A program made the translations under genes and the position numbers. The notes below the pieces were generated by a model. The model was not told the DNA's origin, did no database searches, and saw only the letters and a program-made list of their open reading frames with translations. A stretch of DNA of 64,000 bases from an uncultured bacterium (GTDB lineage Bacteria > Bacillota_I > Bacilli_A > RFN20 > CAG-826). Location: positions 8,042 through 72,041 of the forward strand of contig CASFSS010000007.1 in assembly GCA_949297445.1 (NCBI GenBank). Direction: 5' to 3'. Each line of letters begins with the position of its first letter. The stretch's first letter is position 1. Shown piece after piece: positions 4,614-62,209 of this stretch.

Positions 4614-5058
4614 TCCTTTACAAATGCGTGAAATTATAATGGATCATTATGATCATCCATTGCACAAAAAAAGACCTGATAATCTCGACGGATATTTGAC
4701 TGTTCATTCAAACTCAGTTAATTGTATCGATGATATCGATGTATTTTTGCTTGTAGATGATGGAGTTGTTACTGATTGTGCCTTTGACGGAATTGCCTGT
4801 GCTATCTCAACTGCGAGTACCGATATAATGTGCGATTTAGTTATTGACAAAAAAATCGATGAAGCAAAACGCATAATTGAGCAGTTTTTCAATATGATTT
4901 ATGAAAAACAATATGATGATACCCTTTTAGATGAGGCAATCGCTTTTCAAAATACATACAAACAAGCCGCACGTATAAAATGTGCAACAATCGGTTGGAA
5001 TGCTTTAAGCGATCTATTTAAGATGTTTGAAGAGGTAGACAATGATAAAGAAAGATGA
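4597..5058 (+). CDS. sufU: Fe-S scaffold / sulfur acceptor SufU (NifU-like N-terminal domain)
   Basis: N-terminal ...[14 protein letters not shown]... aligns with B. subtilis SufU VIMDHYKNPRN. Conserved Cys residues ([16 protein letters not shown]). Overlaps the sufS stop. Confidence 0.85.
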
Positions 5059-6439
5059 TTTCACCGAAAAATATAAATATGGTTTCAAAGACGAATATCG
5101 TGATGTTATAACAACTGGTATTGGTTTAAACGAAGATGTTGTGCGCGAGATTTCAGCTCTAAAAAAAGAACCAGATTGGATGTTACAATTTCGATTAAAA
5201 GCTTTAAAAGCTTTTTTAGAAATGGCAATGCCGAATTTTGGTCCTGATTTATCCTTTATAGATTTCCAAAGTTATACATATTTTACTAGACCATCGGAAA
5301 GAGTTGCCTCTAGCTGGGAAGATGTTCCAGAAACAATTAAAAAAACTTTTGAAAAAATCGGTATCCCAGAGGCCGAGCAAAAGTTTTTAAGTGGCGTAAC
5401 AACACAATATGAATCGGAAGCTGTTTATCATAATATGCTCAAAGAAGTAGAAGAAAAAGGTGTTATTTTTCTTTCAACCGATCAAGCTGTCCAAATGTGT
5501 CCAGATTTAGTAAAAAAATATTTTAATACCGTCGTTCCCTATCGAGATAATAAATTTGCGGCACTTAACGGGGCAGTTTGGTCAGGCGGATCTTTTATTT
5601 ATGTTCCTAAGGGTGTAAAACTTGAAAAACCACTCCAATCTTATTTTCGAATCAATAACGAAAAAACTGGTCAGTTTGAACGAACATTGATTATTGTCGA
5701 TGAAGGTGCTTCTGTTCATTATGTTGAAGGCTGTACTGCTCCAATTTATTCAAAGGAATCGCTTCATGCTGCCATCGTTGAAATAATTGTTCATAAAAAT
5801 GCAACCTGCAGGTATTCGACAGTTCAAAATTGGTCCAATAATATTTTAAATTTAGTCACCAAAAGAGCACTCGTTCATAAGAACGGACAAATGGATTGGA
5901 TTGATGGCAATATTGGCAGTCAATTAAATATGAAATATCCTGCTTGTATTCTTGCCGGCGAAGGCGCTAGAGGCAATTGCATCTCTATAGCAGTAGCTAG
6001 TAGCGGACAGTATCAAGACGCTGGTGCCAGAATGATTCATTTAGCAAAAAACACATCATCTACGATTATTTCTAAGTCGATATGTCATAGTGGCGGTTAT
6101 GTAAATTTTCGCGGAACTGTTCGCCACACTAAAAACGCTACTAATTCACGGTCACACATTGAATGTGATACTTTAATATTGGACAATATATCTAAGTCCG
6201 ATACTATGCCTCATAACATTGTGATGAACGATTCATCTTTCATTGAGCATGAAGCGACAGTTAGCAAAATTAATGAAGATGAATTGTTTTATCTAATGAG
6301 CAGAGGAATTTCAAAAGCCGATGCAACTCAAATGATTATTATGGGATTCATTGAACCTTTTTCAAAGGAGTTGCCGATGGAATATGCCGTCGAGTTAAAT
6401 CAATTAATTCGATTAGATATGGAAGGAAGTATCGGTTAA
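5042..6439 (+). CDS. sufB: Fe-S cluster assembly protein SufB
   Basis: 465 aa of the SufB/SufD family; last gene of the sufCDSUB order typical of Firmicutes. Confidence 0.93.
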
Positions 6440-9062: not shown

Positions 9063-9065
9063 AAT

Positions 9066-9213
9066 TTTGTTTCAGGGCAGGGCGCAATTCCCAATCGGTG
9101 GTAAACCCCACGAACCTTATATGGTAGATTTGGTGCAATTCCAAAGGCGACAGTTATAGTCTGGATGAAAGAAACATTTATTTGTTACATATGCCCTGAT
9201 GAGGGCTTTTTTT
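9066..9213 (+). promoter_or_regulatory. FMN riboswitch (RFN element) with a downstream hairpin that acts as terminator and/or SD-sequestor
   Basis: GGGCAGGGCGCAATTCCCAATCGGTGGTAAACCCCACGAACC...GGTGCAATTCCAAAGGCGACAGTTATAGTCTGGATGAAAGAAA matches the RFN consensus (GGGTGAAATTCCC...ACCGGCGGTA...GGTGCAATTCC...CGACAGT.AAAGTCTGGATG.GAGA). Hairpin gccct-gatg-agggc at 9193-9206 is followed by T7. The GAGGG in its 3' arm is the only SD-like sequence before ATG 9214. Confidence 0.85.
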
Positions 9214-9924
9214 ATGAATATCTTAAGTGCTGTGTGTTCAATTATCTTAATTATTCTTTGGATGATGGCTTTTGTGTATGTTCTTTTTAAAGAATTAGGG
9301 CGTAAACAATCGTATCGTCCATCGGTCAAATTTATTGTGCGAGTTGCTATTTTTGGTGCTTTATCAACCATTTTATATACCGTGCCCGGTTTAAAATTTT
9401 CTGTTCCTTTTCTCCCCTCATTTCTCGAGTTTCATTTTGATGAAATCCCAATTCTGATTGCAAGTTTTGCCTATGGACCATTGACTGGCGTTGCAATTAT
9501 TTTTATTAAAACACTTATAAAATTACCAATGACTTCAACGTTAGGAGTTGGTGAATGCGCTGACTTTCTTTATAGTCTCGTCTTTATTTTGCCAGCCGCA
9601 CTAATTTATAAAAAACATCGAAAGTTTTCTGGCACAATTATTGGGCTTTCTGTTGGCACTATCACTCAGTTATTAGTTTCAATGTTCTTTACCGTATATG
9701 TCATGGTTCCCTTTTACATGTACGTAATGGGTTTTTCTAGGGAAGCGTTGCTCTCTATGTGTTCAATGGCTAATCCGGCAATTACAAATCTTGAAATGGA
9801 ATTAGGCCTTTACGGCATATTACCCTTTAATGCCATAAAAGATGCAATCGTTATTTTTGTTACATTAATTGTTTATAAATCTCTGCGACGTTTTATTGAG
9901 AATCTTGATATTGCTAAAAACTAA
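9214..9924 (+). CDS. ribU: ECF-transporter S component, predicted riboflavin transporter RibU
   Basis: Multi-TM protein of the ECF S-component type, immediately downstream of the FMN riboswitch. Start moved to ATG 9214 (MNILSAV...) because the track start at 9199 lies inside the riboswitch hairpin. Confidence 0.75.
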   Translation: MNILSAVCSIILIILWMMAFVYVLFKELGRKQSYRPSVKFIVRVAIFGALSTILYTVPGLKFSVPFLPSFLEFHFDEIPILIASFAYGPLTGVAIIFIKTLIKLPMTSTLGVGECADFLYSLVFILPAALIYKKHRKFSGTIIGLSVGTITQLLVSMFFTVYVMVPFYMYVMGFSREALLSMCSMANPAITNLEMELGLYGILPFNAIKDAIVIFVTLIVYKSLRRFIENLDIAKN

Positions 9925-10007: not shown

Positions 10008-11303
10008 ATGATTGCCAAAGCTCGGAAACTTCAATTGCCTAAAATTTTCACCGAGGAGCTTCCAACTCTTCGTTTTGTTGACCCCGATTTTGTCTATATC
10101 GCAACGAATAATGCACGCTGTAAAACGGCAGATTTATGCATCAAAGAAGGTGACTATTTAAAGATTGGTCAAATAATTGGCATGCGACATGGTGGCTTTT
10201 TTGAGCAACCAATTCATTCGACTGTTAGCGGTACATTTGTTGGTCTAGAAAAACATTATCATCGTAATGGAAAGATGGTTGATTTTATAAAGATTCAAAA
10301 CGATAAAAAAGATGTTTTTGATGAATCGCTATTTACTCGTTCGGACGAAGAAATTTTTAAAATGACTAAAGATGAAATTACCAAGGTGGTAAAAGATACT
10401 GCGCTGGTTGGTTTAGGTGGTTCATCTTTCCCAACTTATATTAAGTTTCAAACTGATTTACCAATTCATACGATTTTAATTAATGGTATTGAATGTGAGC
10501 CTTTATTGACTTCCGATTATCGCATTATGATGGAATACCCAGACCGTATCATGAAAGGTATTTCATATGTCATGCACGCTTTTAATGCAAAAAAAGCCAT
10601 TATTTGTTTTAAGAAAAAGCACAAAGATTTAAAACTTTTATACAAAGAGATAATTCGACGATACCCAGATATTGATGTGTCAATTGGCTTAATGGATGAC
10701 TTTTATCCGCAAGGCTGGGAAATTGCCATGATTAAAAAGGCCTTGCATATCGATGTTAAATCTGGTGAATTACCGAGTAAATATGGTGTCATGAATTTCA
10801 ATGTTTCAACTATTGTTGGTCTATATAAAGCTTTGAAGTATAATATGCCAGTTGTTAAAAGGAATATCACCATCACCGGCAACGGAATCAAATATCCACA
10901 AAATTTGCGAGTGCGTGTTGGAACAAGTATTCGTGAGCTTATTAATCTATGTGGTGGATATGTCGATGATGGACCATTTGTGTTTATTGTTGGTGGGCCA
11001 ATGATGGGAGCCTCTTTAGATTGTGATGATGTCATTATTACAAAAACGGTGACATCGATCATCGTCTTGAAGAAAATTGACTTTCAAGAAAATCCATGTA
11101 TTCGATGCGGAAGCTGTGGCTATTCATGCCCCACTAAATTGATGCCTTGGGCAATAATGAATGCTGTTAAATCATTAAATAAAGAGCGATTGAAAGCGTT
11201 GCATCCGGAACGCTGTATTGAGTGCGGATTATGTGCATATGCATGTACGAGCAAAATAAATGTAACTGACTACATTAGAAGGGCAAAGTTGTTGGCTAAA
11301 TAA
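10008..11303 (+). CDS. rnfC: Rnf electron-transport complex subunit C
   Basis: NADH/FMN-binding segment GLGGSSFPTYIKF and two ferredoxin-type motifs CIRCGSCGYSCP and CIECGLCAYACTS. Confidence 0.92.
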   Translation: MIAKARKLQLPKIFTEELPTLRFVDPDFVYIATNNARCKTADLCIKEGDYLKIGQIIGMRHGGFFEQPIHSTVSGTFVGLEKHYHRNGKMVDFIKIQNDKKDVFDESLFTRSDEEIFKMTKDEITKVVKDTALVGLGGSSFPTYIKFQTDLPIHTILINGIECEPLLTSDYRIMMEYPDRIMKGISYVMHAFNAKKAIICFKKKHKDLKLLYKEIIRRYPDIDVSIGLMDDFYPQGWEIAMIKKALHIDVKSGELPSKYGVMNFNVSTIVGLYKALKYNMPVVKRNITITGNGIKYPQNLRVRVGTSIRELINLCGGYVDDGPFVFIVGGPMMGASLDCDDVIITKTVTSIIVLKKIDFQENPCIRCGSCGYSCPTKLMPWAIMNAVKSLNKERLKALHPERCIECGLCAYACTSKINVTDYIRRAKLLAK

Positions 11304-11305
11304 TT

Positions 11306-12430
11306 ATGGTAACTTTTGTTAAGAGTAAAGCGCCCCATATCCGAAGAAAAGATTCGGTCAACCGCATGATGCTTGATGTCATCATCGCTTTGTTGCCGGT
11401 TACTGTTTTTGCTTTTGTAATGAGCGGACTAGATGCCCTAAAAGTTGTTGGCATATCTTTAGTGACGATGGTTGCCGCTGAAGCAATTTATGTTTGGATT
11501 CGATATACGCCATATCGTGATATTAAATATAAGGCAAACAAAGAAGAATTACCGACGCTTAGAGAACGTACGCGTTTCCGCTTCAATGCCTTTAAGGAGA
11601 AAACCAAGATTGCTTTTTCCAATTATCGCCTATATAACTTATTGTCGCCAATCGTAAGCGCATTAATTTTTGCGATGTGTATGCCTGCCGCTGCGCCGTG
11701 GTGGACAGTGTTAGTTTCTTCCTTATTTGGCATTGTGGTTGCTAAACTTCTTTTTGGTGGTCTAGGTCAAAATATCTTTAACCCAGCTGCGGCCGGAAGA
11801 GTCTTTTTTGGTCTCTGCTTCGGAACGACTGTTGCAACCTATTCGAATAATTTTGTCGATGTGGTTGCTGGCGGAACTCCTTTAGGACAATTGACCGGCG
11901 ATTTGCTCAATATAAATCAATATTCCTTGTTGGATTTATTTGTTGGTTTAGTTCCTGGCGCATTAGGCGAGGTGAGTACCGTTTGTATTTTGGCCGGAGC
12001 AATCTATTTATTTGCTCGTCGAGCGGCCGATATTCGAACGACTTTATCGATGATAATAACATTTGTTATTTTAGTCTTTTTCGCCTCGATTGCTTTGGGT
12101 GCCGATAATTATTTTGAATATACAGTCTATCATCTTTTATCGGGCGGTTTATTATTTGGGGCGGTATTTATGGTTACCGATCCTGTTACAACTCCTGCGA
12201 ATAAATTTGGTAGGATTTTGTATGGCACATTGGTAGCTATTTCAACCTTTTTAATTCGCTTTTTTGGCGCTTACCCAGAAGGTGTGGCTTTCTCGATTTT
12301 AATTTGCAATATATTAGTTCCGCTATTGGATTCACCAAAGTTAGCAATGAATCGTTTTCGCTGGTATCAGCCACTTATTATTGCTGGACTTATTGGAATA
12401 TTTGTGGGGGTAGCCTTCTTGGCTTTATAA
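11306..12430 (+). CDS. rnfD: Rnf complex subunit D (NqrB family)
   Basis: Polytopic membrane protein with NPAAAGRVFF and a conserved Thr-containing flavinylation region; operon position. Confidence 0.92.
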   Translation: MVTFVKSKAPHIRRKDSVNRMMLDVIIALLPVTVFAFVMSGLDALKVVGISLVTMVAAEAIYVWIRYTPYRDIKYKANKEELPTLRERTRFRFNAFKEKTKIAFSNYRLYNLLSPIVSALIFAMCMPAAAPWWTVLVSSLFGIVVAKLLFGGLGQNIFNPAAAGRVFFGLCFGTTVATYSNNFVDVVAGGTPLGQLTGDLLNINQYSLLDLFVGLVPGALGEVSTVCILAGAIYLFARRAADIRTTLSMIITFVILVFFASIALGADNYFEYTVYHLLSGGLLFGAVFMVTDPVTTPANKFGRILYGTLVAISTFLIRFFGAYPEGVAFSILICNILVPLLDSPKLAMNRFRWYQPLIIAGLIGIFVGVAFLAL

Positions 12431-12434
12431 AGCG

Positions 12435-12956
12435 ATGAAAAACTACATAAAATTTCCCTTGGTGTTAGGCTTAATTAGTGCGTGTAGTGGTTTGCTTATT
12501 GGCGGAGTTTATATGCTAGTCAATCCAACGATTGTCAATAATCAAAATGCCACTGAATTAGCGGCTCGGCAAGAAGTTTTTGCCGAGGCGACCGCCTTTG
12601 ATAAAATTGAACGCGACTTTAGCGATTGTACTTATTTAAAAGAGGTTTATGCCGCGACAAATGAAGATGGTTTACTAGGATATTTATATCGTGGCGAGGG
12701 AGCAAATTCTTATGGAGCAATTTCTCTATATGCCGGCATTATATCAGACGAGGTTGGAACGCTTAAGACTGTGTCTTTGTTGGAAAACACCCAGTCTTAT
12801 GCTTCAATTGTGAACGATTGGGTTAATGTGACTTTTTTAGCCCCAATCGATGATACAAATTCTATCGATGTATCTTGTGGCGCGACAAGAGGTGCAACCA
12901 TCGTTAAAAATATTGTTTTAGAAGCGCAAGCAGATTATTTGAAAGGAGGTTTTTAA
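12435..12956 (+). CDS. rnfG: Rnf complex subunit G (FMN-binding, NqrC family)
   Basis: N-terminal TM anchor plus FMN-bind domain with the S-G-A-T-type flavinylation motif (SCGATRGATIV). Confidence 0.85.
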   Translation: MKNYIKFPLVLGLISACSGLLIGGVYMLVNPTIVNNQNATELAARQEVFAEATAFDKIERDFSDCTYLKEVYAATNEDGLLGYLYRGEGANSYGAISLYAGIISDEVGTLKTVSLLENTQSYASIVNDWVNVTFLAPIDDTNSIDVSCGATRGATIVKNIVLEAQADYLKGGF

Positions 12957-13676
12957 ATGGAAAAAATCAGCAAAAAAAAGTTAATTTTGAATGGTTTATT
13001 TGTTGAAAACCCCTTATTTGTTATGCTTTTAGGAACCTGTCCATCCCTAGCGACGACAACTTCTATTGAAAGTGCATTAGGAATGGGTATTCTCTTTTTG
13101 CTAGTGTTAATCTGCTCGAATGTATTAATTTCTTTATGCCGAAAAATTATTCCGGATGATATACGCATTCCATCATTTATTGTCATTATTGCCACTTTCG
13201 TCACAATTGTTAAATTATTGACGGAAGCTTTTTTGCCTGAACTATATTCGACACTTGGTGTCTTTATTTCATTGATTGTCGTCAATTGTATTGTTTTAGG
13301 AAGAGCAGAGGCGTTTGCGTCTAAAAACAATGTGGTCGACTCTCTTTTAGACGGAATCGGAATGGGATTAGGATTTACGATGGCTTTGCTAATCATTGCT
13401 TTCTTCCGCGAATTAATTGGAACAGGCGGTTTTACAATTGGCAAAGTTTTTACATTCATTCCTGAAATGGAGTGGTTGCCTTTAAAAGATTATGCAATTT
13501 CCTTTTTTGTTATGCCTGGTGGTGCCTTCTTAGTTTTAGGAATTATTTTAGCCATCATGGCCGCTTATAAAAATAGCAAAGAAGCATTCAAAAAGAGTGT
13601 TTTAAAAGCCGAAAAAGAAAAAGCAAAATTACAAGCTCAAGCGCAGAATTCACCCGATAATGGAGGTAACAAATAA
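12957..13676 (+). CDS. rnfE: Rnf complex subunit E
   Basis: NqrD/RnfE family, LLGTCPSLATTT motif, 239 aa. Confidence 0.9.
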   Translation: MEKISKKKLILNGLFVENPLFVMLLGTCPSLATTTSIESALGMGILFLLVLICSNVLISLCRKIIPDDIRIPSFIVIIATFVTIVKLLTEAFLPELYSTLGVFISLIVVNCIVLGRAEAFASKNNVVDSLLDGIGMGLGFTMALLIIAFFRELIGTGGFTIGKVFTFIPEMEWLPLKDYAISFFVMPGGAFLVLGIILAIMAAYKNSKEAFKKSVLKAEKEKAKLQAQAQNSPDNGGNK

Positions 13677-14263
13677 TGAACGAATTTGTTGTATTTGTCC
13701 TCGCTATTATTAATGGAATGTTGATTGATAATGTAATATTATCGCGCTTTTATGGCATTTGTCCTTTCCTAGGCGTTTCTAAGAAAACTTCTAGCGCCTT
13801 AGGGATGGGAGTTGCTGTTACCCTTGTCATTTTATTAGCCACTTGCATATGTTGGCCAATTTATACATATGTGTTGACTCCTGCGAGCATCACTTTTATG
13901 GACACGATTGTCTTTATTTTGGTCATTGCATCTTTGGTACAAGTTGCCGCTTTAATCATCAAAAAATATAGTCCTACTTTGTATAATGCTCTTGGTATTT
14001 ATTTACCTTTAATTACGACAAACTGTGCTGTTTTAGGTGTTGTACAAGGCAATGCCGATAGTGCATATTCATTCTTAGATTCGCTCGCAAATGCTCTAGG
14101 TACTGGAATCGGCTTTTTAATTGTCATCGTTCTATTTTCATACATTAGGACCCATCTCGATGCGATGGATATTCCTAAAGCGATGAAGGGAGTGCCTATT
14201 GCTTTAATTACCGCCTCATTGATGGCGCTTGCCTTTTTAGGCTTTTCGGGGTTAATCTCATGA
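13676..14263 (+). CDS. rnfA: Rnf complex subunit A
   Basis: NqrE/RnfA family, YGICPFLGVSKKTSSALGMG motif, 195 aa. Confidence 0.9.
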   Translation: MNEFVVFVLAIINGMLIDNVILSRFYGICPFLGVSKKTSSALGMGVAVTLVILLATCICWPIYTYVLTPASITFMDTIVFILVIASLVQVAALIIKKYSPTLYNALGIYLPLITTNCAVLGVVQGNADSAYSFLDSLANALGTGIGFLIVIVLFSYIRTHLDAMDIPKAMKGVPIALITASLMALAFLGFSGLIS

Positions 14264-14478
14264 TTATATTAATTTCTCAAGTTGATTATATTCTTATTAC
14301 GATTGCCATTGTTGTAGTCTTGATTTTTATTTTTGCCATCTCGCTATATCTTTATAAGAAAACTCCCGAACCAACTGGTGGCCGCGTCAAAAAAAGTGAA
14401 GCATGTAAAACTTGTAGCATGTCTTCTTGTTCGTTTCGTGTAGAAGAAAAAACGAAAGGAAATAATCCAGATGAATGA
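14260..14478 (+). CDS. Small membrane protein with a Cys-rich tail (CKTCSMSSC), translationally coupled between rnfA and rnfB
   Basis: 72-aa ORF with one TM helix. ATGA overlap with the rnfA stop and 8-nt overlap with the rnfB start. Could be a spurious frame; no family recognised. Confidence 0.3.
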   Translation: MIILISQVDYILITIAIVVVLIFIFAISLYLYKKTPEPTGGRVKKSEACKTCSMSSCSFRVEEKTKGNNPDE

Positions 14479-14830
14479 GGGGCAATTTATTTTATTAGAA
14501 TCAGCGGTTGACTTGACATTTCTTTGGTCATTCTTAATTTTGCTTGCTTTAGGTGCGGTGCTTGGCGTTTTAATTTTCGTGGCCGTCAAATTTTTTACCG
14601 TCAAAGAAGATCCGCGCATTGCGGATGTTGAAAAAATGCTACCGAACGCTAATTGCGGTGCGTGTGGCTATCCTGGCTGTCACGGCTTTGCCGAAGCCTT
14701 AGTAAAGGGCAAAGAAAAGAAAGTCTCGAAATGTCGCGTTGGTAAAGAAGCGACAACATATGATCCTATTATTGCTTATTTAAGAGCCCATCCAAATGAA
14801 GATGGCAGTTCAATTGAGGTAACGAAATGA
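14471..14830 (+). CDS. rnfB: RnfB-like subunit, N-terminal domain only (TM helix plus CGACGYPGC...C cluster motif; no 2x[4Fe-4S] ferredoxin domain)
   Basis: FTVKEDPRIADVEKMLPNANCGACGYPGCHGFAEALVKG...KC aligns with the E. coli RsxB N-terminus ([29 protein letters not shown]...). The protein ends at 119 aa, where canonical RnfB continues with ferredoxin domains. Confidence 0.75.
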   Translation: MNEGQFILLESAVDLTFLWSFLILLALGAVLGVLIFVAVKFFTVKEDPRIADVEKMLPNANCGACGYPGCHGFAEALVKGKEKKVSKCRVGKEATTYDPIIAYLRAHPNEDGSSIEVTK

Positions 14831-15789
14831 AAAAAGTTTTTTATGCTTTTTTATCGTTTATGTTTTTGCCAACTCTTTTTTCTTGTTCATCGGCACCACA
14901 AGGTGTCTCTAAAGAGATTTATGCCTTTTCAACTTTAATCAATATTACGGCGTACGATTGTGATGAAACATACGTCAATGCTGCCGCTCAAATATTGGAG
15001 ACATATAACAAGTTGGCGGATAATTTTTTGTCGTATAGTGGATGTATCAACGTTAACGATATAAATAATGCTCCGAAAGAAACTCCTGTTGCAATCTCCG
15101 ATGAACTATTAAATTTATTAATTTTTTCTGAAAAAATGATGGCGGCGACCGACGGTTATTTTGACCCCTATTTAGGAACTATCACCTCTTTATATAAAGA
15201 AGCAATCGAATCAGAAACTGCGCCTAATATGGAACAAATTGCCGAGCTATTAAAGAAACGTCAAAATGGCCAAGTTACAATAGATAGTGTCAATAAAACC
15301 GTTACTTTGAGCGGTGATATTTCAATTGATTTAGGGGCGATTGCCAAGGGCTACGCTTTAAATAAAGTGAAAGAATATTTTGCCGGTAATAATATAACGC
15401 ATTATATTGTTAACGGTGGACTTTCTTCTATTGTTTTAGGTGAGAAACCAAACGATGAAAATGGATATAGTGTCGGCGTTAAGGGCCTCGATGATTATGT
15501 TGTGTATTTAAAAAATGTTTCCTTAGCAACTTCCTCAATATCTGAGCAATCATTTTCTATTAACGGCGAATTATATACGCATATTATCAATCCGTTTACC
15601 GGTTCTTCAAAGCCTTTATATTCTTTAGTTTTATTAAAAGGCAACGACGCAGGAATGCTCGACGCTTTTTCGACCGCTTTTATGAATATGAGCGAAGAGA
15701 TGATTGTTACAAAAGCAGAAGAGTACGGCTTTTCATATTTAGTTAGTAAGGATGGATCAAACATATATATTCGGAGCACTGATTTATGA
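14827..15789 (+). CDS. apbE: FAD:protein FMN transferase ApbE, lipoprotein
   Basis: Signal peptide plus lipobox LFSC; conserved GAIAKGYA motif; directly after rnfB, as in many rnf operons. Confidence 0.88.
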   Translation: MKKVFYAFLSFMFLPTLFSCSSAPQGVSKEIYAFSTLINITAYDCDETYVNAAAQILETYNKLADNFLSYSGCINVNDINNAPKETPVAISDELLNLLIFSEKMMAATDGYFDPYLGTITSLYKEAIESETAPNMEQIAELLKKRQNGQVTIDSVNKTVTLSGDISIDLGAIAKGYALNKVKEYFAGNNITHYIVNGGLSSIVLGEKPNDENGYSVGVKGLDDYVVYLKNVSLATSSISEQSFSINGELYTHIINPFTGSSKPLYSLVLLKGNDAGMLDAFSTAFMNMSEEMIVTKAEEYGFSYLVSKDGSNIYIRSTDL

Positions 15790-23585: not shown

Positions 23586-23928
23586 ACTCCGGCCCAGGCG
23601 GCTGCTGGCGAGAAATCGTTAGAGGAAAGTCCATGCTCGCACAAGCTGTGATGCTTGTAGTGATTGTGCTAACGGAAAAAATAACGTTAGGTATGCGGGA
23701 GCGCATAACGGCAGGGATAGTCTAAAACTCCGGTCATGATGAAAACCTTGAAAGTGCCACAGTGACGATTTTGCTAGAAATGGCAAAGTGGAACGTTGGT
23801 AAACCCCACAAGCGAGAAACCCAAATTTGGTAGGGGAAGTCACCTATAGAAAAGAATAGATGGTGGCATGCGAATGCATAGATAAATTGTCGCCCTTTGA
23901 CAGAACATGGCTTATCGGGTCGGAACTC
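23586..23928 (+). ncRNA. rnpB: RNase P RNA, bacterial type B
   Basis: GAGGAAAGTCCATGCTCGCAC near the 5' end. ...GAAAGTGCCACAGTGACG...GGAACG.GGTAAACCCCACAAGCGAGAAACCCAAATTTGGTAGGGGAA... is near-identical to the B. subtilis rnpB core. 3' ...ACAGAACATGGCTTA.... End coordinates approximate. Confidence 0.88.
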
Positions 23929-33866: not shown

Positions 33867-34082
33867 ATGAAAGATTTAAACTATACCTTATTCGATGTCG
33901 TAGAATTAAAAAAAGAGCATCCTTGTGCGAAGCGTTCTAAACTTTTTCAGGTTGTTCGGCTTGGTGCTGATTTAAAAATTCGTTGTTTAGGTTGTGGCAA
34001 TTTAATTCTCATTTCACGCGATACATTTAATCATCGTTTGCGTAAAATTGTGTCGCATCATGATAAAGAGATTGTCGTTTAA
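33867..34082 (+). CDS. Small DUF951-like protein with paired Cys motifs (HPC...CLGCGN)
   Basis: 71 aa; resembles Bacillus YyzM-type small proteins. Confidence 0.45.
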   Translation: MKDLNYTLFDVVELKKEHPCAKRSKLFQVVRLGADLKIRCLGCGNLILISRDTFNHRLRKIVSHHDKEIVV

Positions 34083-34133
34083 ATTTTTTGACACATCACT
34101 GCTATATGAGTCTAGTAATTTATTAGATTCAAT

Positions 34134-36212
34134 ATGACGTTAATCGAAATAAAAAACTTAAATAAAACCTTTGTAAAGAATAATAATCAATGCGTTGTCT
34201 TTGACAAGGCTAATTATCGATTTCCTGACAAAGGTTTTTTTGCGCTTGGTGGGAAATCGGGTTCTGGCAAAACAACATTTTTAAATTTGCTACTAGGAAT
34301 AGAGAAGCCAACTAGCGGTGAAATTATTTATAAAAATAAAAATATTAAAAATTTTTATAGGGATGAAAAAATACTTTACTATCAAAATGAGATAGCGATT
34401 ATTTTTCAACGTTATAATCTTTTTGAAAACTTAAGTGCTATTGATAACGTACGGATAGCAACGAACTTCGCAAGAGAAAAAGAGGAAACGATAAACGCTC
34501 TTTTTGAAAAATTCGGCTTATCAAATCATAAATATAGCAAAGTTAGCACGTTAAGTGGTGGTGAAAAACAGCGGTTATCAATTATTAGAGCATTAGTAAA
34601 AAATCCTTCAATTTTATTAGCGGATGAACCTACGGGAGCTCTCGATGAAAAGAATTCTATCATCTTGCTTGAATATTTAAAGGAAATAGCAAAAACCCGC
34701 CTTGTTATCATGATAACTCATAATGTTAAATTGGCCGAGCAATATGTCGACGAAATGATTTACATAAAAGATAAGCAAATTGTCGGCAATTTGCATGAAA
34801 AAAGTGCAAATTACCATTTTTTTGAACAAAAAAATATTCCTTTTAAACTGAACATTCTTAGCCTTAAAAAAATAATTCAGGCGCATTTTTCGCAAGATAT
34901 TTTTAAAAATTGTGTTGTTTTTATATCGTCATTAGTTGCTTATTTATTCTTATTTTTTTCAGTTGGTTTCTATAACGGCATTGAAATATCAAGCGTTGAA
35001 GAATCAAGAAAAACGCTATTATATAATTTTGCAAGTATAAGCAAAGAAGAAATCGTCCATTTAGAATCTTCTCCTATTAGTCTTAGCAAACAAACACGTC
35101 CATCAATTGAAACGATGGAAGAATTAAAAAATGATTTAGCTGATTTTATTTATAAACCTAATTTATCTTATTTTTTGCCTAGTTATATCGAGGTGTCTAC
35201 GAGCGAGAATAATTTTTCGACATGCGCACTTTATCCATTTTTTATTGATGAAAGTGTGCTAGAAATAATCTCGCCATGTATTAATGGGAGACTACCTAAC
35301 ACCTATCAATTTAATGAAATTATTGTTAATAGAAGTTATGCAGAATTATTTTCTTCTAATGATGTTATCGGTCGTCAAATAATTTTTCGCCATGACGCTG
35401 TTTGTCCGTTTTTATATAACGATAGTTTAATACAAGAAAACTATTCGCTTGCTATCCCTATGACAATTGTTGGTGTTATCGATGAATTTAGTTTTTTATC
35501 AACGCCAAAAATTTTTTATTCTTATTCTGCATTTGAAAGTTACCTAGATAAATTAATAATGGTTGAAACATCAAATAAATTAGGTAAACAGTTTTCCTAT
35601 CTTGATTATATTTTATCAATTAGCGACGATAGTCCAATAAGCAGTTATTCTTATTATTTATTTTTTGGCAAAGAAGGGGCAAATCATTTAACTGAATATT
35701 TAGATAATTTTAACGATGATAACGAATTAACCATTACATCTTTGTACTATGAAAATATGACTTTATATAAGAACTTATTGATGTCTTTTGCAACGATATT
35801 TTTATTATTTTCATTAATTGTTCTAATTGTGGCAATCTTGATGCTTGTCTTAGTTAGTTCGGCATCATATTTTAAAAGAAAACGCGAGTCAGCAGTCTTA
35901 ACAATTTTAGGTATAAGAAGTTTTGATATATATAAAATATATTTTATTGAAAATTTTATCATTGTCTTTTTGTCATATTTAGCATCTTTAATATTCTCTT
36001 ATCCACTTGAAAAATTAGCCAATTTCATCATTTGGAAAGCAAACGGTTTATCTAACATAATTGCGATTCCTATTTTTAATTATTTGAACATCCCTTTGCT
36101 TCTACCATTTTCTTTATTTTTTATTATTTTAATATCCACATTCTCAGTGCTTTTTGTCATATTTTTTAAGCAAAAAAATTCATCAATAAGTTGGGAGCTT
36201 AAAGAAGAATGA
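34134..36212 (+). CDS. MacB-type ABC transporter, fused ATPase / FtsX-like permease (692 aa)
   Basis: N-terminal ABC ATPase (GKSGSGKTT; LSGGEKQRLSIIRAL; Walker B LLADEPTGALD), then TM1, a roughly 260-aa extracytoplasmic domain, then three C-terminal FtsX TMs. Confidence 0.8.
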   Translation: MTLIEIKNLNKTFVKNNNQCVVFDKANYRFPDKGFFALGGKSGSGKTTFLNLLLGIEKPTSGEIIYKNKNIKNFYRDEKILYYQNEIAIIFQRYNLFENLSAIDNVRIATNFAREKEETINALFEKFGLSNHKYSKVSTLSGGEKQRLSIIRALVKNPSILLADEPTGALDEKNSIILLEYLKEIAKTRLVIMITHNVKLAEQYVDEMIYIKDKQIVGNLHEKSANYHFFEQKNIPFKLNILSLKKIIQAHFSQDIFKNCVVFISSLVAYLFLFFSVGFYNGIEISSVEESRKTLLYNFASISKEEIVHLESSPISLSKQTRPSIETMEELKNDLADFIYKPNLSYFLPSYIEVSTSENNFSTCALYPFFIDESVLEIISPCINGRLPNTYQFNEIIVNRSYAELFSSNDVIGRQIIFRHDAVCPFLYNDSLIQENYSLAIPMTIVGVIDEFSFLSTPKIFYSYSAFESYLDKLIMVETSNKLGKQFSYLDYILSISDDSPISSYSYYLFFGKEGANHLTEYLDNFNDDNELTITSLYYENMTLYKNLLMSFATIFLLFSLIVLIVAILMLVLVSSASYFKRKRESAVLTILGIRSFDIYKIYFIENFIIVFLSYLASLIFSYPLEKLANFIIWKANGLSNIIAIPIFNYLNIPLLLPFSLFFIILISTFSVLFVIFFKQKNSSISWELKEE

Positions 36213-38989
36213 TAAAAATTAAAAATTTTACAAAGCGTTTTGACAAACACTCGCTATTTTTCGATGTAAATTATTCTTTTCCTCAAAAAGGCTTGTTCGC
36301 AATTGTTGGGCCATCTGGTTGTGGCAAAAGCACTTTATTAAAAGCAATGAGCGGACTCGACAATGATTACGACGGTTATATTATTGTTAATCAAATAAAT
36401 ATTAAAAAACTAAGCAACGATGAACGCGCAAAGTTTCGACAATCAACGATAGGAATGGTTTTTCAAAATTTTAATTTGTTTAATTTAGATAGTGCTTTGA
36501 ATAATATCATTATTGCTTATGAAAATTATAAAAATTGTATCGACGGACATTTAACGCGCATACTAGAGAAATTAGACATAATAAATTTGGTTAATAAGCC
36601 AATAAACACTTTATCCGGCGGAGAGATGCAGCGCGTCGCCATTGCTCGCGCCTTAATTAATAAGCCTACTATTTTGCTTTGCGATGAGCCAACCGGATCA
36701 CTTGATGGAGAAAATAGTAAGAATATCTATGGAATCTTAAAAGAAATTAGTAAAGATCAACTTGTAATTGTTGCAACACACGACTACGAAGGCATCGAAA
36801 AAGTTGCCGATGAAATAATTGGAATCGATAATAAGAAATTGTGTAATCATAAATTCAACAAAAAAATTTACATTGATGAAACCAATAAAATAAATAAGAA
36901 AGTTGATTTAAAAAATCGAAAATTAAGGTTTTCGTTTATTGTTAAAAATACAATTCAATATTTTAAAGAGAAAAAAATCCGCTTTGCCTTTTCGACAGCT
37001 ATTTTGGCACTCAGTATGCTCGGCGTAGGTCTATCTACTTTATTATCGCTTTCGTTGAGCGAAAAAATTGACGCGTCATTTTCTAATTTAGTAGATGGTA
37101 ATCCATTGGTGATTCGAAGAAAAGGAAATCAAAATATTATCGACAATGTATATAGTGCCTCAAAAGAACAAGTTGAAGAGCTAAAATCAACCTACAACTA
37201 TTTTATTAAAAATATTGGTGTAACATACATGGTAAATTTTGAAGACTTCTTTAAAGACGGAAATGATTTTTACGTAAGTTGCAATCATTATAATCATCTT
37301 TTAACAAATGTCTCGGTGCGCGATATAAATGATTTTATTGTCTATGATATCGATTCAGCTAATCGCTTTTATCCACGGCAAAAATTAAATTTGGCAAACG
37401 ATGAAATCGTTTTATCCTTGACATACGAGGAGATGTCCAACATATGCTATAAGTTGCAAATAAATCGTAGTTTTGTTTCCCTTGGTCAATACATTAATAA
37501 AAATAAATTACAATTATCGCTTCATGTAAAAAATAATGACTGGGTTTATGATGATGAACAAATTTTTAATATTGCTGCAGTTTATGAAAGTCGAACGAAT
37601 GCTTTAGCACACACGAATAGCCTTTGGAATGAATATGTTTTTGAAGAATTGATGCGAATGAAAAGCAATGATGGCAGTGAACGGATTTTTCCTTGGGAAA
37701 TGTATAAGTATTATTATTTTGAGACATGGGATGATCCATCTAGCATGATTGATGTCATAATGCTTAATGATAAATATTCTAATTTACTCTTAGAGAAAAC
37801 AAGCTATCTTTATCATCCAAAACTATGTAAAATAAACGAGATTTGCGATATAAACCGCGCAATTATCTTCTCAATTGACAAAAATTCAGTCGATTTTTCT
37901 TTAATTGAAAGCATCAATTCAATCGGTGAAAAATTTGAAAATTATTTCTATGCATCGGCGTTTGGCTATTCTGAGAACGTCGTCTCATATTTAAATGGTT
38001 TTTCTAAAAATTTTTTTATTGCATCTTCGCGTGAGAGTTTAGAAAAAACAATTGATGCGCATACAAGTTTATCTAGCCGTGATCTATTCGAAGTTAATCT
38101 TTCATTAGATGTAATTTCAGGCAACTATATGCACGCCTTATCAAATGGATTAGCTTTTTCGAGCCATATTAGTAATCTTATTTATGGACGAACGGCAAGT
38201 AGACTTGATGAAATAGTTGTTTCATCTAGCGTTGCCAAAACCTTATTTAATGACGAAAACGCGCTGGGTAAAAAAATATATGTTGGTGCTTCATGCGAAG
38301 AAAGTGAAAATGTGGATGGAACGATATACACTAGTTTTGCTACTACGGAATTAGTCATAGTTGGTGTCAATAATTCAAGCCATAATTTGCTTTATCATAG
38401 ACCAAATTGGTCGATAAATTTTTTTCGCGATCGCTTAGGCATTTCAATGTTTAAATTATTACCTTCCGCACTAATTATTGAACTTGCTAATAACGAGGAG
38501 GCTTATTGCTCGCATTTAGTAAAAAACTTGCAACATTTATACCCTGACTATGAAATTATTTCGCCATTATTATCAATTCATACCAGCCTAGAATCTGCTT
38601 CACAAATCATTACAATTTTTCTATTTGTCTTTTCATTTATTGCTTTAATCATTTCTTTTTCTTTACTATTTTTAGTAATTTATTTAGCCGTCGATGAATG
38701 TAAAGGCGAAATATTTATTTTATATTCCCTTGGTTTTTCATTTCGGGAAATTAAAAAAATATTTTATGCAAAAACTTTTTTGCTTGGTTTTGTTGCCATG
38801 ATTATATCTATGATAGAAATTTTTGTTTGTGATGTATTTATTAGCAGTTATATTAATAACTATTTTGGCATGTCTTCCATGTTTACTCTTTCAATCTATC
38901 CTTATATTTTATCTTTTCTTACTGCGCTTTTAGTGTGTATTGGCGTAGTTGAAATAATTTTTTCTATGAAAAAAAGTGCATTTCGATAG
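36209..38989 (+). CDS. MacB-type ABC transporter, fused ATPase / FtsX-like permease with a roughly 500-aa extracytoplasmic domain (926 aa)
   Basis: ATPase (GPSGCGKST; [15 protein letters not shown]; [11 protein letters not shown]), TM1, a large Cys-poor extracellular domain, then three C-terminal FtsX TMs. ATGA overlap with the upstream paralogue. Confidence 0.8.
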
Positions 38990-39045
38990 TTTTAATTTTC
39001 TTTATTTAGTAAAATAATACAGCACATTAAAAGGGGAATTAACTT

Positions 39046-40521
39046 ATGCGTTTTAAAGTTGTATTAGTTTTACTGCCAGTATTATTGAGTCTTACATCCT
39101 GCAAGATTAATAGTTGTTCGTCAACTGAAAGTACTGACAGCAGTTCTACTAGCGATACCACGACGTCCATTGAAAAACCGGATAACGATCAATCTGGCGT
39201 TGAAGTGATCAATAATTTCACATATACACTTAACGACATTAATCGTACTAATGGTTGGTGCAGCGTTAATCCAATTGGCAATGTCAGTTTATTAGTAGTT
39301 CCTGTTGATTGGAATGGTGACAATTATGAGTGGACCGACAAGAAATTAGAGGATATTAATAAAATTTATTTTGGTGAAGCAGCCGATACCGAATGGCATT
39401 CGGTAAAAAGCTTTTATTATGCCTCTAGTTATGGAAATTTAAATATAAATGGCGAAGTTTCTGATGTTTTGACAATTTCATCAGCGACTGCTTTTAACAA
39501 AGCACCTGATGAATTAGCGTATGCGGCATTAAATAAATCTAGTGATTTTTCTTCCTTAAGGAAGAAATATGATACCGATGGCGATGGTTATATCGATGCT
39601 GTATGTTTCGTATATAATCGTCCAATATCATATAACAATAGCGATGATTATTGGGCATTTGTGTATTATGATCCAAGTAGCACCGCTAATGTCAATGATC
39701 CTCAAGTTAACTTATATATGTGGGTTAGTTATGATTTTATTCATGAAGGGTATGGCAATTCAAAATTAGACGGCCACACCTTTATTCATGAAACTGGTCA
39801 TCTTCTTGGTCTAAATGACTATTATTCTGATAGTGGTGAATGGGATGCAAGCGGTGGCAAAGAAATGCATTCATATAATATTGGTGATGAAAATATTTAT
39901 GCCAAAATGTCTTTAGGATGGGTAAATCCTTATTATGTCAAAACCGATTCATCGGTAACTTTAACTTTAAGAACTTCGGCATTTTATGGTGACGCCATAA
40001 TTATTAACGATAGTTGGAATGGTTCGGCTCTTGATGAATATATCGCCATTGAATATTATTCGCCCGATAATTTAAATTATCGTGATTCATACGATTCAAT
40101 AAGAAAATCCGAAGGTATTTCAATGTTTACAACCAGCGGTTTCCGAATCTATCATATCGATGCAAGAATCGTCAAATATAGTGGTAATTTTTTCCGCGGA
40201 TACGCCGATTCAATCGATGGAAATTATGAATATTATATCGGAGCGAGCAACGCTACTAGTTATTCTTATTTAAATACTATGAGCGACCGTAAAAATTATA
40301 AGGAAGTGCATTTATTAGAACCCGATGGAGTCAACACATTAAAAACTGGTAAATTGGCAACTAATGACTCATTGTTTGTTGCCGGCGATACATTTACTGC
40401 AACTTCCGCCTTCTTCTCTAATGGTGATAATAAATTTAATGATGGTAGTGATGTTGGATATAGAATCGACATAATTGAAAGCAACGAAACAACTGGCACA
40501 TTGACAATTACCAAAATATAA
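39046..40521 (+). CDS. Secreted lipoprotein, M6 (immune inhibitor A)-like zinc metalloprotease
   Basis: Signal peptide plus lipobox LTSC. HExxH within HETGHLLGLNDYY resembles the M6 HEFGHDLGLPDEY motif. AAAGGGGA RBS. Confidence 0.6.
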   Translation: MRFKVVLVLLPVLLSLTSCKINSCSSTESTDSSSTSDTTTSIEKPDNDQSGVEVINNFTYTLNDINRTNGWCSVNPIGNVSLLVVPVDWNGDNYEWTDKKLEDINKIYFGEAADTEWHSVKSFYYASSYGNLNINGEVSDVLTISSATAFNKAPDELAYAALNKSSDFSSLRKKYDTDGDGYIDAVCFVYNRPISYNNSDDYWAFVYYDPSSTANVNDPQVNLYMWVSYDFIHEGYGNSKLDGHTFIHETGHLLGLNDYYSDSGEWDASGGKEMHSYNIGDENIYAKMSLGWVNPYYVKTDSSVTLTLRTSAFYGDAIIINDSWNGSALDEYIAIEYYSPDNLNYRDSYDSIRKSEGISMFTTSGFRIYHIDARIVKYSGNFFRGYADSIDGNYEYYIGASNATSYSYLNTMSDRKNYKEVHLLEPDGVNTLKTGKLATNDSLFVAGDTFTATSAFFSNGDNKFNDGSDVGYRIDIIESNETTGTLTITKI

Positions 40522-40539
40522 AATATATTTTATAAACGT

Positions 40540-40737
40540 ATGCGAGGCAAAGTAATTAGCTTTAACAAAAATAAAGGGTACGGTTTCATTACAACAGATA
40601 ATGGTGATGACTTATTTTTCCACTATTCCGAATTGGTTATGGACGGTTTTAAAAACATCGATGTTGACCAATTAGTGGAATTTGATGTTGAAGAAACTGA
40701 CCGCGGATTGCGCGCTATTAAGATTCACAAGATTTAA
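40540..40737 (+). CDS. Cold-shock protein (CspA family)
   Basis: RNP1/RNP2 motifs KGYGFI and DLFFHYS; 65 aa. Confidence 0.9.
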   Translation: MRGKVISFNKNKGYGFITTDNGDDLFFHYSELVMDGFKNIDVDQLVEFDVEETDRGLRAIKIHKI

Positions 40738-51431: not shown

Positions 51432-51506
51432 TGGTTGGGGCGACTGGGATCGAACCAGTGAATGGTGAGTTCAGAGCCCACTGCCTTACCGCTTGGCTAC
51501 ACCCCA
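51432..51506 (-). tRNA. tRNA-Gln (anticodon CUG)
   Basis: Reverse-strand cloverleaf TGGGGTGTAGCCAAGCGGTAAGGCA-GTGGG-CTCTGAA-CTCAC-...GTCGCCCCAACCA, with anticodon loop CUCUGAA and encoded CCA. Confidence 0.75.
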
Positions 51507-51523
51507 ACGGGATAAAGCATTAG

Positions 51524-51611
51524 TGGTGCCCAAGACCGGACTTGAACCGGTATGGTATCATCTACCGCAGGATTTTAAGTCCTGTGCGTCTACCTATTTC
51601 GCCACTTGGGC
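51524..51611 (-). tRNA. tRNA-Leu (anticodon UAA), long variable arm
   Basis: GCCCAAGTGGCGAAATAGGTAGACGCACAGGACTTAAAATCCTG...GGTTCAAGTCCGGTCTTGGGCACCA. Confidence 0.85.
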
Positions 51612-51614
51612 ACC

Positions 51615-51690
51615 TGGTCTCCCGTAAACGGTTCGAACGTTCGACCCCTTGATTAAAAGTCAAGTGCTCTACCAGCTGAGCTAACGGGAG
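51615..51690 (-). tRNA. tRNA-Lys (anticodon UUU)
   Basis: CTCCCGTTAGCTCAGCTGGTAGAGCACTTGACTTTTAATCAAGGGGTCGAACGTTCGAACCGTTTACGGGAGACCA. Confidence 0.85.
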
Positions 51691-51699
51691 GTGATTGTT

Positions 51700-51775
51700 T
51701 GGTTGGGGTGACTGGGATCGAACCAGTGAGATGACAGAGTCAAAGTCTGTTGCCTTACCGCTTGGCTACACCCCA
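51700..51775 (-). tRNA. tRNA-Gln (anticodon UUG)
   Basis: TGGGGTGTAGCCAAGCGGTAAGGCAACAGACTTTGACTCTGTCATC...GTCACCCCAACCA; close to B. subtilis tRNA-Gln. Confidence 0.85.
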
Positions 51776-51778
51776 AGA

Positions 51779-51862
51779 TGGTGGAGGAAGGTGGATTTGA
51801 ACCACCGAACCCTAAGGAACTGATTTACAGTCAGCCGCGTTTGGCCGCTTCGCTATTCCTCC
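51779..51862 (-). tRNA. tRNA-Tyr (anticodon GUA), long variable arm
   Basis: GGAGGAATAGCGAAGCGGCCAAACGCGGCTGACTGTAAATCAGTTCCTTAGGGTTCGGTGGTTCAAATCCACCTTCCTCCACCA; near-identical architecture to B. subtilis tRNA-Tyr. Confidence 0.85.
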
Positions 51863-51876
51863 AGCGAACCGCGTGA

Positions 51877-51952
51877 TGGTGGATGTTGAGGGGTTTGAAC
51901 CCCCGACCTCCGCCGTGTAAAGGCGATGCTCTCCCAGCTGAGCTAAACATCC
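51877..51952 (-). tRNA. tRNA-Val (anticodon UAC)
   Basis: GGATGTTTAGCTCAGCTGGGAGAGCATCGCCTTTACACGGCGGAGGTCGGGGGTTCAAACCCCTCAACATCCACCA. Confidence 0.85.
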
Positions 51953-60477: not shown

Positions 60478-61338
60478 ATGGATAAGTTAATTGCGACTGA
60501 TTTAGACGGAACTCTCTTTTATCCTAAAGCTCGTTTGCGTTTAATTAAACCAAAGGCCTTGCGCTTTATTCGGCGCTTTATCGATAGTGGTGGTCGTTTT
60601 GCCATCGTTTCTGGCCGGAATGAATATTTTGGGAAAAAAGTGGCAAAAAAAATTGGTCGGCCAATCGGCATAATCGGTTGTAACTCTGCTTTTATTATTC
60701 AAAATAATGAACGCATTAAACAGGATTACTTTGATAATAGCCGTTTAGCTTTTTTGATAAATTATATTAATGAGAACTATAAGCCGATGATTTTATGCTT
60801 GATGAGTGAAAAATATAATATGATTTCTAAGAGCACTAAATTTTCTATTTGGTATGCGTTTTGTTACATGATGTATGCCTTTTTCCAAGGTGTATATCGC
60901 GAACCAAATAAGTTTGACCGTGAAGCTTACGACGAAGAAGTTCAATACGGAAAAGTCTTTAAGATAATGGCTTTATTCGGAGCGGGCAAAAAAGCGAAGT
61001 TAAAAGCGATGGAAGTCAATAAGAAGTTGCGTAAAAAATTTGGTGATGAGTTCGAATTCTCCTGGTCACAAGAGGCTATTGAAATAACTCCGAGCCTTTG
61101 TTCAAAAGCAGAAGGATTGAAATTTTATATCGATTATCTTAAGATAAATCGCGACGATGTTTATGTCGTCGGCGATTCTGGTAACGATATTTCAATGTTT
61201 AATGATTTTTACGAGAATAGTTTCTGTATGGAACACGCGTCATTATCGGTCTCGAAATACGCGAATCACATCATTAAACGTTTCGCAGATATTGAAAAAT
61301 ATACGATGAAAGAAGGACAAAAAGAAGAAAATGAATGA
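60478..61338 (+). CDS. Cof-type HAD-IIB phosphatase
   Basis: Motif I ATDLDGTL and motif IV GDSGND; 286 aa. Confidence 0.8.
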   Translation: MDKLIATDLDGTLFYPKARLRLIKPKALRFIRRFIDSGGRFAIVSGRNEYFGKKVAKKIGRPIGIIGCNSAFIIQNNERIKQDYFDNSRLAFLINYINENYKPMILCLMSEKYNMISKSTKFSIWYAFCYMMYAFFQGVYREPNKFDREAYDEEVQYGKVFKIMALFGAGKKAKLKAMEVNKKLRKKFGDEFEFSWSQEAIEITPSLCSKAEGLKFYIDYLKINRDDVYVVGDSGNDISMFNDFYENSFCMEHASLSVSKYANHIIKRFADIEKYTMKEGQKEENE

Positions 61339-62209
61339 ATTTAACAACTACACACGCGTTATCGCCGATTTTATTAGGGTGAACTGCATTTTTCGCGATA
61401 CGTTGGAATATGTGATGGTCAAGCCTAAATACGATGTTAAGATGTACGAAAATCGTCGCAAAGCGCTCGAAATGGCCATGACAAACAACACTCCTTTAAA
61501 AGTAACTTGTGATAATTCACAAGAAGCCGGACAAAAATTGATGGAAAAGATGCAGGAACTTTTTTCGCTCGTCTATGGCGAAGATTCCTCTGTTGTTAGA
61601 GTGCGCGGTGAAGAATTGACGGTCGATAGTGCCCGTCACTTGGCCATTTTCGAATTAGTTATTCCAATTCACGAAGAAATCCGCAAGATTATCAGCGCTC
61701 ATGTTGATGCCGCTAAGAAAAATAACAAATACGATATGCCTTTAATTGACGAAACCATTAAAACTGACGAGAGATATTATCGAGGTTTTGCCGATTTATT
61801 ACTTTTTAATGAATTAGAAAAATTATTTGTTGAATACAATAAAGCGCGTAGCGAGGCAAAAGGTGCCATCACTCCTCAATCTAACTTTATTCAAAACGAT
61901 ATCGCAAAAATTGTGCAACTGATTAATTTTGTTCGTCAAAATGGACAAGTTACCAGCGCCGATTATTATGCCTATATTGATCCATTGTTTGCCTTGATTG
62001 AAATGACCAGTGGTCGTCGCGATTTGCCGACCGGCCGAACATTTAAGGACTTGTTCCCAGAAGTGCGATCATTGATAACTAAATTCGTCCAAGATAACGA
62101 AGTAAGCTATCAAAAATGTTATAGTCAATTGGTTCAATTGGCCGTGGAAGATGGCAAGCGTTTAGCGGAAGAAGCAAAGAAAAAAAGTGACGAGAAGGTA
62201 GCGGCATAA
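61331..62209 (+). CDS. Hypothetical cytoplasmic protein (292 aa, no recognised domain)
   Basis: Overlaps the end of the Cof phosphatase gene by 8 nt (translational coupling); I recognise no motifs. Confidence 0.5.
   Translation: MNEFNNYTRVIADFIRVNCIFRDTLEYVMVKPKYDVKMYENRRKALEMAMTNNTPLKVTCDNSQEAGQKLMEKMQELFSLVYGEDSSVVRVRGEELTVDSARHLAIFELVIPIHEEIRKIISAHVDAAKKNNKYDMPLIDETIKTDERYYRGFADLLLFNELEKLFVEYNKARSEAKGAITPQSNFIQNDIAKIVQLINFVRQNGQVTSADYYAYIDPLFALIEMTSGRRDLPTGRTFKDLFPEVRSLITKFVQDNEVSYQKCYSQLVQLAVEDGKRLAEEAKKKSDEKVAA

Follow-up and report, generated by a model that had tools for sequence, protein, structure and literature searches.

The window analysed here, a stretch of 64,000 nucleotides from contig CASFSS010000007.1 of an uncultured bacterium (GenBank assembly GCA_949297445.1, forward-strand positions 8,042 to 72,041), carries a tandem pair of genes, designated A and B, each of which encodes a half-transporter in which an ATP-binding cassette (ABC) ATPase is fused to an FtsX-type permease, followed by a third gene, C, for a predicted lipoprotein metalloprotease (Table 1). 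A sequence-only reading of this DNA had described the pair as translationally coupled genes of 692 and 926 codons, and the open reading frames (ORFs) indeed lie in this way, the stop of A and the start of B overlapping by 4 nt. More than 100 full-length homologues were found for each protein (about 696 amino acids long for A and about 930 for B), so that both are genuine genes and not chance ORFs. The source labels of these homologues are generic, for example 'ABC transporter ATP-binding protein/permease [Bacilli bacterium]', and the related sequences are named 'Bacilli bacterium' or 'uncultured Erysipelotrichaceae'.

Both proteins were read from sequence as an ATPase, one transmembrane (TM) segment, a large ectodomain, and three FtsX-type TM segments, that is, as having the architecture of MacB and the type VII ABC systems, and in this respect Pfam, motifs, and hydropathy all concur. 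ABC_tran is matched at E 2.1e-30 by A and E 9.9e-32 by B, and FtsX at E 4.6e-10 (A, residues 558-674) and E 1.6e-9 (B, residues 806-913). The Walker A, Q-loop, LSGGE, Walker B, and H-loop motifs are canonical throughout the two nucleotide-binding domains (NBDs), and their residues are conserved at 90% or more in both families. In each protein, Kyte-Doolittle hydropathy, on which the TM layout is predicted here in place of a dedicated topology predictor, places a first TM segment behind the ATPase and the other three at the C-terminal end, and it is from these positions that ectodomains of ~270 amino acids in A and ~520 in B follow. At the level of DNA, a consensus scan, itself weak evidence, found no terminator-like site at the A/B and B/C junctions; the single plus-strand terminator-like match between the start of A and the end of C (38400-38412) falls within B and agrees weakly with the consensus. 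In such scans, terminator-like matches are as numerous as shuffling would predict, and promoter-like ones slightly more numerous. The guanine-plus-cytosine (GC) content is 0.29-0.31 over A and B (window 34001-38000), compared with ~0.36 in the flanks.

Table 1. Genes and protein regions of the A-B-C locus, in window coordinates (position 1 is the first nucleotide of the window).
Feature	Position	Strand	Description	Basis
Gene A	34134-36212	+	Fused half-transporter, 692 amino acids	ORF; Pfam; motifs; hydropathy; homologues
Parts of A			NBD ~1-225; TM1 261-279; ectodomain ~282-550; FtsX TM2-4 555-677 (residues)	
Ectodomain of A	34977-35783	+	~270 amino acids; ordinary MacB-type Porter+Sabre	
Gene B	36209-38989	+	Fused half-transporter, 926 amino acids	ORF; Pfam; motifs; hydropathy
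Parts of B			NBD ~1-220; TM1 260-283; ectodomain ~284-802; FtsX TM2-4 806-918 (residues)	
Ectodomain of B	37058-38614	+	~520 amino acids; Porter+Sabre core with large insert	
Insert of B ectodomain	37232-38140	+	Family-specific; B residues ~342-644; boundaries approximate	
Gene C	39046-40521	+	Predicted lipoprotein zinc metalloprotease, distantly M6-like, 491 amino acids	Lipobox; HExxH; TIGR03296; synteny
Active-site motif of C	39787-39825	+	HETGHLLGLNDYY (HExxHxxGxxD), residues 248-260	Sequence

The ectodomains of A and B differ greatly in size. Giant extracytoplasmic domains had been ascribed to both proteins, a description that holds for B and has to be withdrawn for A, whose ectodomain is ordinary, at about 1.3 times the ~200 amino acids of MacB (PMC5985334). 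Both domains were modelled with AlphaFold2 on alignments of 42-55 homologues, and both models are confident (predicted local distance difference test, pLDDT, 89.8 and predicted template modelling score, pTM, 0.88 for A; 86.2 and 0.84 for B). Their structural matches are the ectodomains of MacB, LolC/E, YknZ, YtrF, and YbbP, with MacB at the top for both, LolC and LolE among the top matches, and a resemblance to Spr0695 as well as to YknZ. A Foldseek search against the PDB returned type VII ectodomains only. Pfam found nothing significant in the B ectodomain, where MacB_PCD reaches no better than E 0.047 (ectodomain residues 386-442); profile-profile comparison aligns residues 376-516 of this ectodomain with residues 104-270 of that of A. 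B is accordingly built, with approximate boundaries, as an N-terminal Porter segment (ectodomain residues ~19-62), an insert of ~300 amino acids (~63-365), the Sabre, and a C-terminal Porter segment.

This insert is a domain specific to its family, and no structure in the PDB is analogous to it. It is the best-conserved portion of the B ectodomain and is restricted to the B family; most of the ectodomain positions that are invariant fall within it, among them NFEDFFKD, W-x-Y-D-D-E-Q, and a pair of cysteines six residues apart (Cys540 and Cys546). When 1.84 billion cluster representatives were searched exhaustively with phmmer, the insert turned up in just 241 clusters, nearly all of them composed of proteins of ~900-945 amino acids with the match at residues ~340-645. 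The remainder are fragments or permeases of ~620-670 amino acids in which the match starts at about residue 35 to 86, and which are probably versions of B without the fused ATPase. An origin of the insert by internal duplication of Porter or Sabre was considered and rejected: comparison of seven sub-segments with hhalign gave no significant pair beyond the built-in overlap, and the insert shows no internal repeats.

The A-B pair is an old, vertically inherited trait of its clade, as follows from the constancy of its pairing and gene order across related loci. We assembled 36 such loci by looking up exact proteins and by scanning genomes and metagenomes, and in these we located A, B, C, and their flanking genes by tblastn. 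The genome scan, run with a full-length B alignment, gave at least six true orthologue loci, the matches listed being dominated by the generic motif LCDEPTG; the metagenome scan, run with an alignment of the ectodomain only, gave 28 specific loci. In every locus with upstream DNA, A lies immediately upstream of B, and the order fhs-DUF951-A-B-(csp)-ychF-ispF is kept down to 25% identity in B. In the window, a DUF951 gene of 71 codons (33867-34082, plus strand) lies upstream of A and a cold-shock-domain (csp) gene of 65 codons (40540-40737, plus strand) after C, both in positions kept in relatives. The overlap of A and B recurs as well, by 4 nt in locus L003 and 8 nt in L086. The state of fusion is more variable: in L005 (4921-6998), A is split into an ATPase of 232 amino acids and a permease of 460 with B still fused, and A is apparently split likewise in L101, L103, and L104. 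Pfam annotation of the neighbours found no adjacent regulator or two-component system gene near A-B. The pair is a core-genome feature of a large uncultured, low-GC group of Bacilli found in gut, rumen, and digester. Synteny of the locus is conserved throughout the clade, and recent horizontal transfer was therefore rejected as the source of the low GC over A and B, which probably reflects protein composition.

Gene C begins 56 nt after B on the same strand, with a purine-rich stretch ahead of its start codon. Its reading as a lipoprotein with an HExxH motif reminiscent of M6 peptidases is sustained by a lipobox (LTSC, Cys19) and by a match to the NCBIfam M6-domain model TIGR03296 (E 1.9e-18, 67.4 bits) that lies under the curated cut-off of 110.8. 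This model is matched by all 33 C-family proteins (that of the window and 32 others; best E 3.5e-26). The active-site sequence HETGHLLGLND occupies residues 248-258, in which 33 homologues show no variation at H248, E249, H252, G255, and D258. Pfam Peptidase_M6 (PF05547) leaves the C protein of the window unmatched and is met in one of the 33 homologues, at E 0.007; the other Pfam matches of the family are weak and metzincin-type. Against the PDB, the C-family profile finds the active-site stretch of snapalysin only (E 0.017), and the single sequence finds no match. The HExxHxxGxxD zinc-binding motif is shared with M6 (immune inhibitor A) and M7 (snapalysin); unlike these, C is a predicted lipoprotein and has a C-terminal region without a family match. 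C is accordingly best described as a distant relative of M6, its membership in that family not being demonstrated.

Proximity makes it tempting to regard this protease as part of the A-B machine, and the sequence-only reading had proposed a functional link between them. Comparison across loci corrects that inference: C is accessory, a later addition in one branch that lies outside the conserved core. It is present after B in nine of ~31 informative loci, directly in seven (the window, L006, L086, L092, L093, L095, and L112) and at a distance of 1.7 kb in two (L097 and L105). It is absent from 21 loci, in which ychF follows B after ~450 bp, and from L109, in which other genes take its place, namely, two large, unrelated reverse-strand ORFs of 419 and 986 amino acids (3916-8107). 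The region between B and csp or ychF is a variable spot among loci. When B proteins are placed on a neighbour-joining tree, all C-positive loci fall into a single clade, which encloses a nested C-negative subclade, and the deeper lineages are all without C. Members of the C family also occur apart from the pair. L087 has one without A-B, and L088 (3927-11191) carries four tandem C-type paralogues, 31-40% identical to C, beside an rpsL-rpsG-fusA-tuf operon; that locus, 17.5 kb long, contains no A-B pair. Lineages that have C and lineages that lack it conserve the insert of B equally well, and the A-B machine therefore does not depend on C. Of the two findings that would have spoken most plainly against the sequence-only reading, ordinary MacB-like ectodomains and a protease gene not conserved beside the pair, the latter is what the loci contain, and the ectodomain of B remains unusual.

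What, then, does the pair do? The explanation that we consider reasonably likely is that A-B constitutes a vertically inherited type VII ABC complex, probably a heterodimer, that performs mechanical work outside the membrane. That A and B probably form a heterodimer is the most economical account of their strict pairing, fixed order, and overlapping genes, and LolC/LolE supply a precedent. If A-B works as the solved type VII systems do, its two canonical sites would bind and hydrolyse ATP and so move the stalk helices TM1 and TM2, and this movement would open and close an asymmetric pair of ectodomains at the outer face of the membrane. To this pair, A would contribute an ordinary Porter+Sabre domain and B the same core with its conserved insert of ~300 amino acids, which may act as a binding platform for a substrate or partner. 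The work would be extracytoplasmic, an outer-leaflet molecule being expelled or extracted, or a surface partner being actuated, and would not amount to classical transmembrane transport; no membrane-fusion adaptor would take part, and C would have been inserted behind B, at the variable spot, in a single clade. Heterodimer, mechanotransmission, and a constitutive role in the envelope are all inferred by analogy with MacB, LolCDE, FtsEX, and YbbAP (PMC5985334, PMC12646458). Several observations weigh against this explanation. A and B are each a complete half-transporter and could homodimerise; the evidence for their association is indirect, consisting of co-occurrence and gene overlap; the ectodomain models were made on isolated domains, and the boundaries of the insert, drawn from alignment and secondary structure only, are approximate; the A/B region is lower in GC than its flanks; and the NBDs score best, under the cut-off, against the bacteriocin-export model TIGR03608, which leaves room for a role in peptide resistance.

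That each protein could homodimerise raises the prospect that A and B are independent homodimeric transporters, paralogues adjacent by chance. In each the NBD is complete, the TM helices number four, and the motifs are canonical, and MacB and FtsX are known to act as homodimers (PMC5985334). It is nonetheless difficult to reconcile chance adjacency with the strict co-occurrence of A and then B in every informative locus, with the overlap of the two genes, or with a pairing that stays constant where the state of fusion varies, as in L005, and the LolC/LolE heterodimer shows that two such permeases can work together; we regard independent homodimers as quite improbable. A different alternative takes the pair for a pump that confers resistance to antimicrobial peptides or toxic compounds by clearing the outer leaflet, in the manner of YknYZ, Spr0693-0695, or BceAB. 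The putative bacteriocin export ABC model TIGR03608, at ~167 bits, is the best NCBIfam match of the NBDs, a Joint Genome Institute (JGI) label on some family members reads 'ABC-type antimicrobial peptide transport system permease', and the ectodomains are similar to those of YknZ and Spr0695. Against these points, the TIGR03608 scores fall short of the cut-off of 254.85, the names are generic automatic labels, and neither an adaptor of the YknX or Spr0693 type nor a two-component system is adjacent. Moreover, A-B occupies a fixed housekeeping site throughout the clade, outside accessory regions. This constant site and the lack of an adjacent regulator together speak for a constitutive function in the envelope rather than for an inducible resistance pump, which we judge to be unlikely.

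Within the C-bearing clade, one might still see in A-B-C a hydrolase-coupled type VII module, in which the task of A-B would be to position, activate, or feed C, by analogy with FtsEX and its partners EnvC, PcsB, or RipC and with YbbAP and TesA (PMC12646458). The short same-strand spacing of B and C, with no terminator-like site between them in the weak scan, is consistent with such a module. So is the survival of their adjacency through deep divergence, B being 37-45% identical between C-positive loci. Pairwise identities of B track those of C (r = 0.92, a value to which a single tight cluster of loci contributes most), which points to inheritance of C in place since its insertion. The distribution of C speaks against such a coupling: 21 loci and one more lack it after B, compared with nine that have it; a subclade nested within the C-positive clade has lost it and the deeper lineages are without it; in L105 (8922-10522), B is parted from C by a DegV-like gene on the reverse strand and a gene for a helix-turn-helix membrane protein; the family exists apart from A-B, in L087 and in the four-gene array of L088; and the insert of B is as conserved in C-negative lineages. 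We therefore find the coupled module doubtful, and C would be at most a clade-specific client or partner of A-B. More speculatively, the insert could be a new ATP-driven extracellular effector or binding domain, and A-B a core envelope-maintenance machine of a reduced-genome branch of Bacilli that extracts a lipid or protein of the surface, for example, or presents it, with C as a hydrolytic partner in one clade. We think this elaboration rather improbable; were it true, the system would be a protease-coupled analogue of YbbAP-TesA or FtsEX-PcsB.

The window as a whole is ordinary chromosomal DNA, with genes for Suf, MnmG, Rnf, Der, RecA, RNase Y, MiaA, a ThiF-family protein, formate-tetrahydrofolate ligase, YchF, IspF, GltX, an aldolase, and others. 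A flavin mononucleotide (FMN) riboswitch (Rfam RF00050, 107 bits; 9064-9180, plus strand) lies directly upstream of an ORF of 241 codons (9199-9924). Rnf-type genes lie within 10008-15789 on the plus strand, among them RnfC-like (10008-11303) and RnfD-like (11306-12430) ORFs, and are followed by an ApbE flavin-transferase gene (14827-15789, plus strand). A class B bacterial RNase P RNA (RF00011, 270 bits; 23590-23919, plus strand) fits a Bacillota host. Six tRNA genes are clustered on the minus strand at 51435-51952, in the stretch (~50-56 kb) over which the cumulative GC skew levels off and becomes slightly negative, and an ORF of 292 codons (61331-62209, plus strand) has no Pfam match at E <= 1e-5.

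The interest of A-B lies in the class to which it belongs. Type VII ABC systems work mechanically outside the membrane, and MacAB, LolCDE, FtsEX, and YbbAP each revealed a distinct process of the envelope. A-B combines two fused, non-identical half-transporters with a conserved ectodomain module that lacks an analogue in the PDB, and it probably marks a hitherto undescribed envelope function. With 241 clusters, a diagnostic insert, and fixed synteny, it forms a well-defined family and a target for multimer modelling and biochemistry.

As to classification, all four testable features that define the type VII or MacB-FtsX superfamily (PMC5985334) are present in A and B. Pfam and motifs place a canonical ABC ATPase N-terminal to a fused permease; hydropathy gives four TM segments, with a large ectodomain between TM1 and TM2 and FtsX over TM2-4; and the ectodomain is of the Porter+Sabre kind. 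Searched against PDB sequences, the B-family profile matches MacB best (5lil, E 7.6e-67), by way of the NBD, linker, and TM1. Within the superfamily, A-B is neither MacB proper nor FtsEX nor LolCDE. All scores against the NCBIfam equivalog models for MacB, FtsE, and LolD lie far under their cut-offs: for NF007826 (MacB), A reaches 137 bits of a required 966, in the NBD region only, and for TIGR02211 (LolD), the scores are 147-149 bits of 307.75. A-B does not have the marks of FtsEX, in which FtsE and FtsX are separate proteins, the ectodomain is small and without Sabre, and the FtsE equivalog is matched at 264.85 bits or more.

MacB itself (MacAB-TolC; PDB 3ftj, 5lil, 5nik) shares with A and B the N-terminally fused NBD, the four TM segments, and the Porter+Sabre ectodomain between TM1 and TM2. 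It differs in being a homodimer, where A-B comprises two different paralogues, in lacking the ~300-residue insert of B, and in working with an adaptor of the MacA type. The absence of a membrane-fusion adaptor gene, remarked upon in the sequence-only reading, holds for the ~6 kb on either side of the pair, in which Pfam found no MFP/HlyD gene, and for the related loci. As the host is labelled Bacilli, neither TolC nor an outer membrane would be expected for A-B. LolCDE offers the closer parallel in pairing, because two paralogous FtsX-type permeases with non-identical ectodomains work together in it; its ATPase, LolD, is a separate protein, whereas A and B carry fused ATPases, and its sorting of outer-membrane lipoproteins through LolA is not a role expected in Bacilli. 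In YknYZ, Spr0694-0695, and YtrEF (PDB 5f9q, 5xu1, 9o9x), unlike A and B, ATPase and permease are separate and the permease is homodimeric. Their ectodomains measure ~190-250 amino acids and lack the insert of B, and two of the three are accompanied by adaptors (YknX and Spr0693) that A-B is without.

A last comparison concerns YbbAP-TesA and FtsEX with EnvC, PcsB, or RipC, in which type VII ectodomains work on, or together with, an extracytoplasmic hydrolase whose gene is co-located (PMC12646458), as those of A-B might with C. YbbP resembles A-B further in having two different ectodomains and departs from it in being a single chain of 10 TM segments served by a separate ATPase. Relative to both systems, the candidate partner here, C, would be a lipoprotein metalloprotease and is confined to one clade. 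Doubly fused, paired, and equipped with a novel insert, A-B belongs with these systems in the type VII class and is not a new kind of system.

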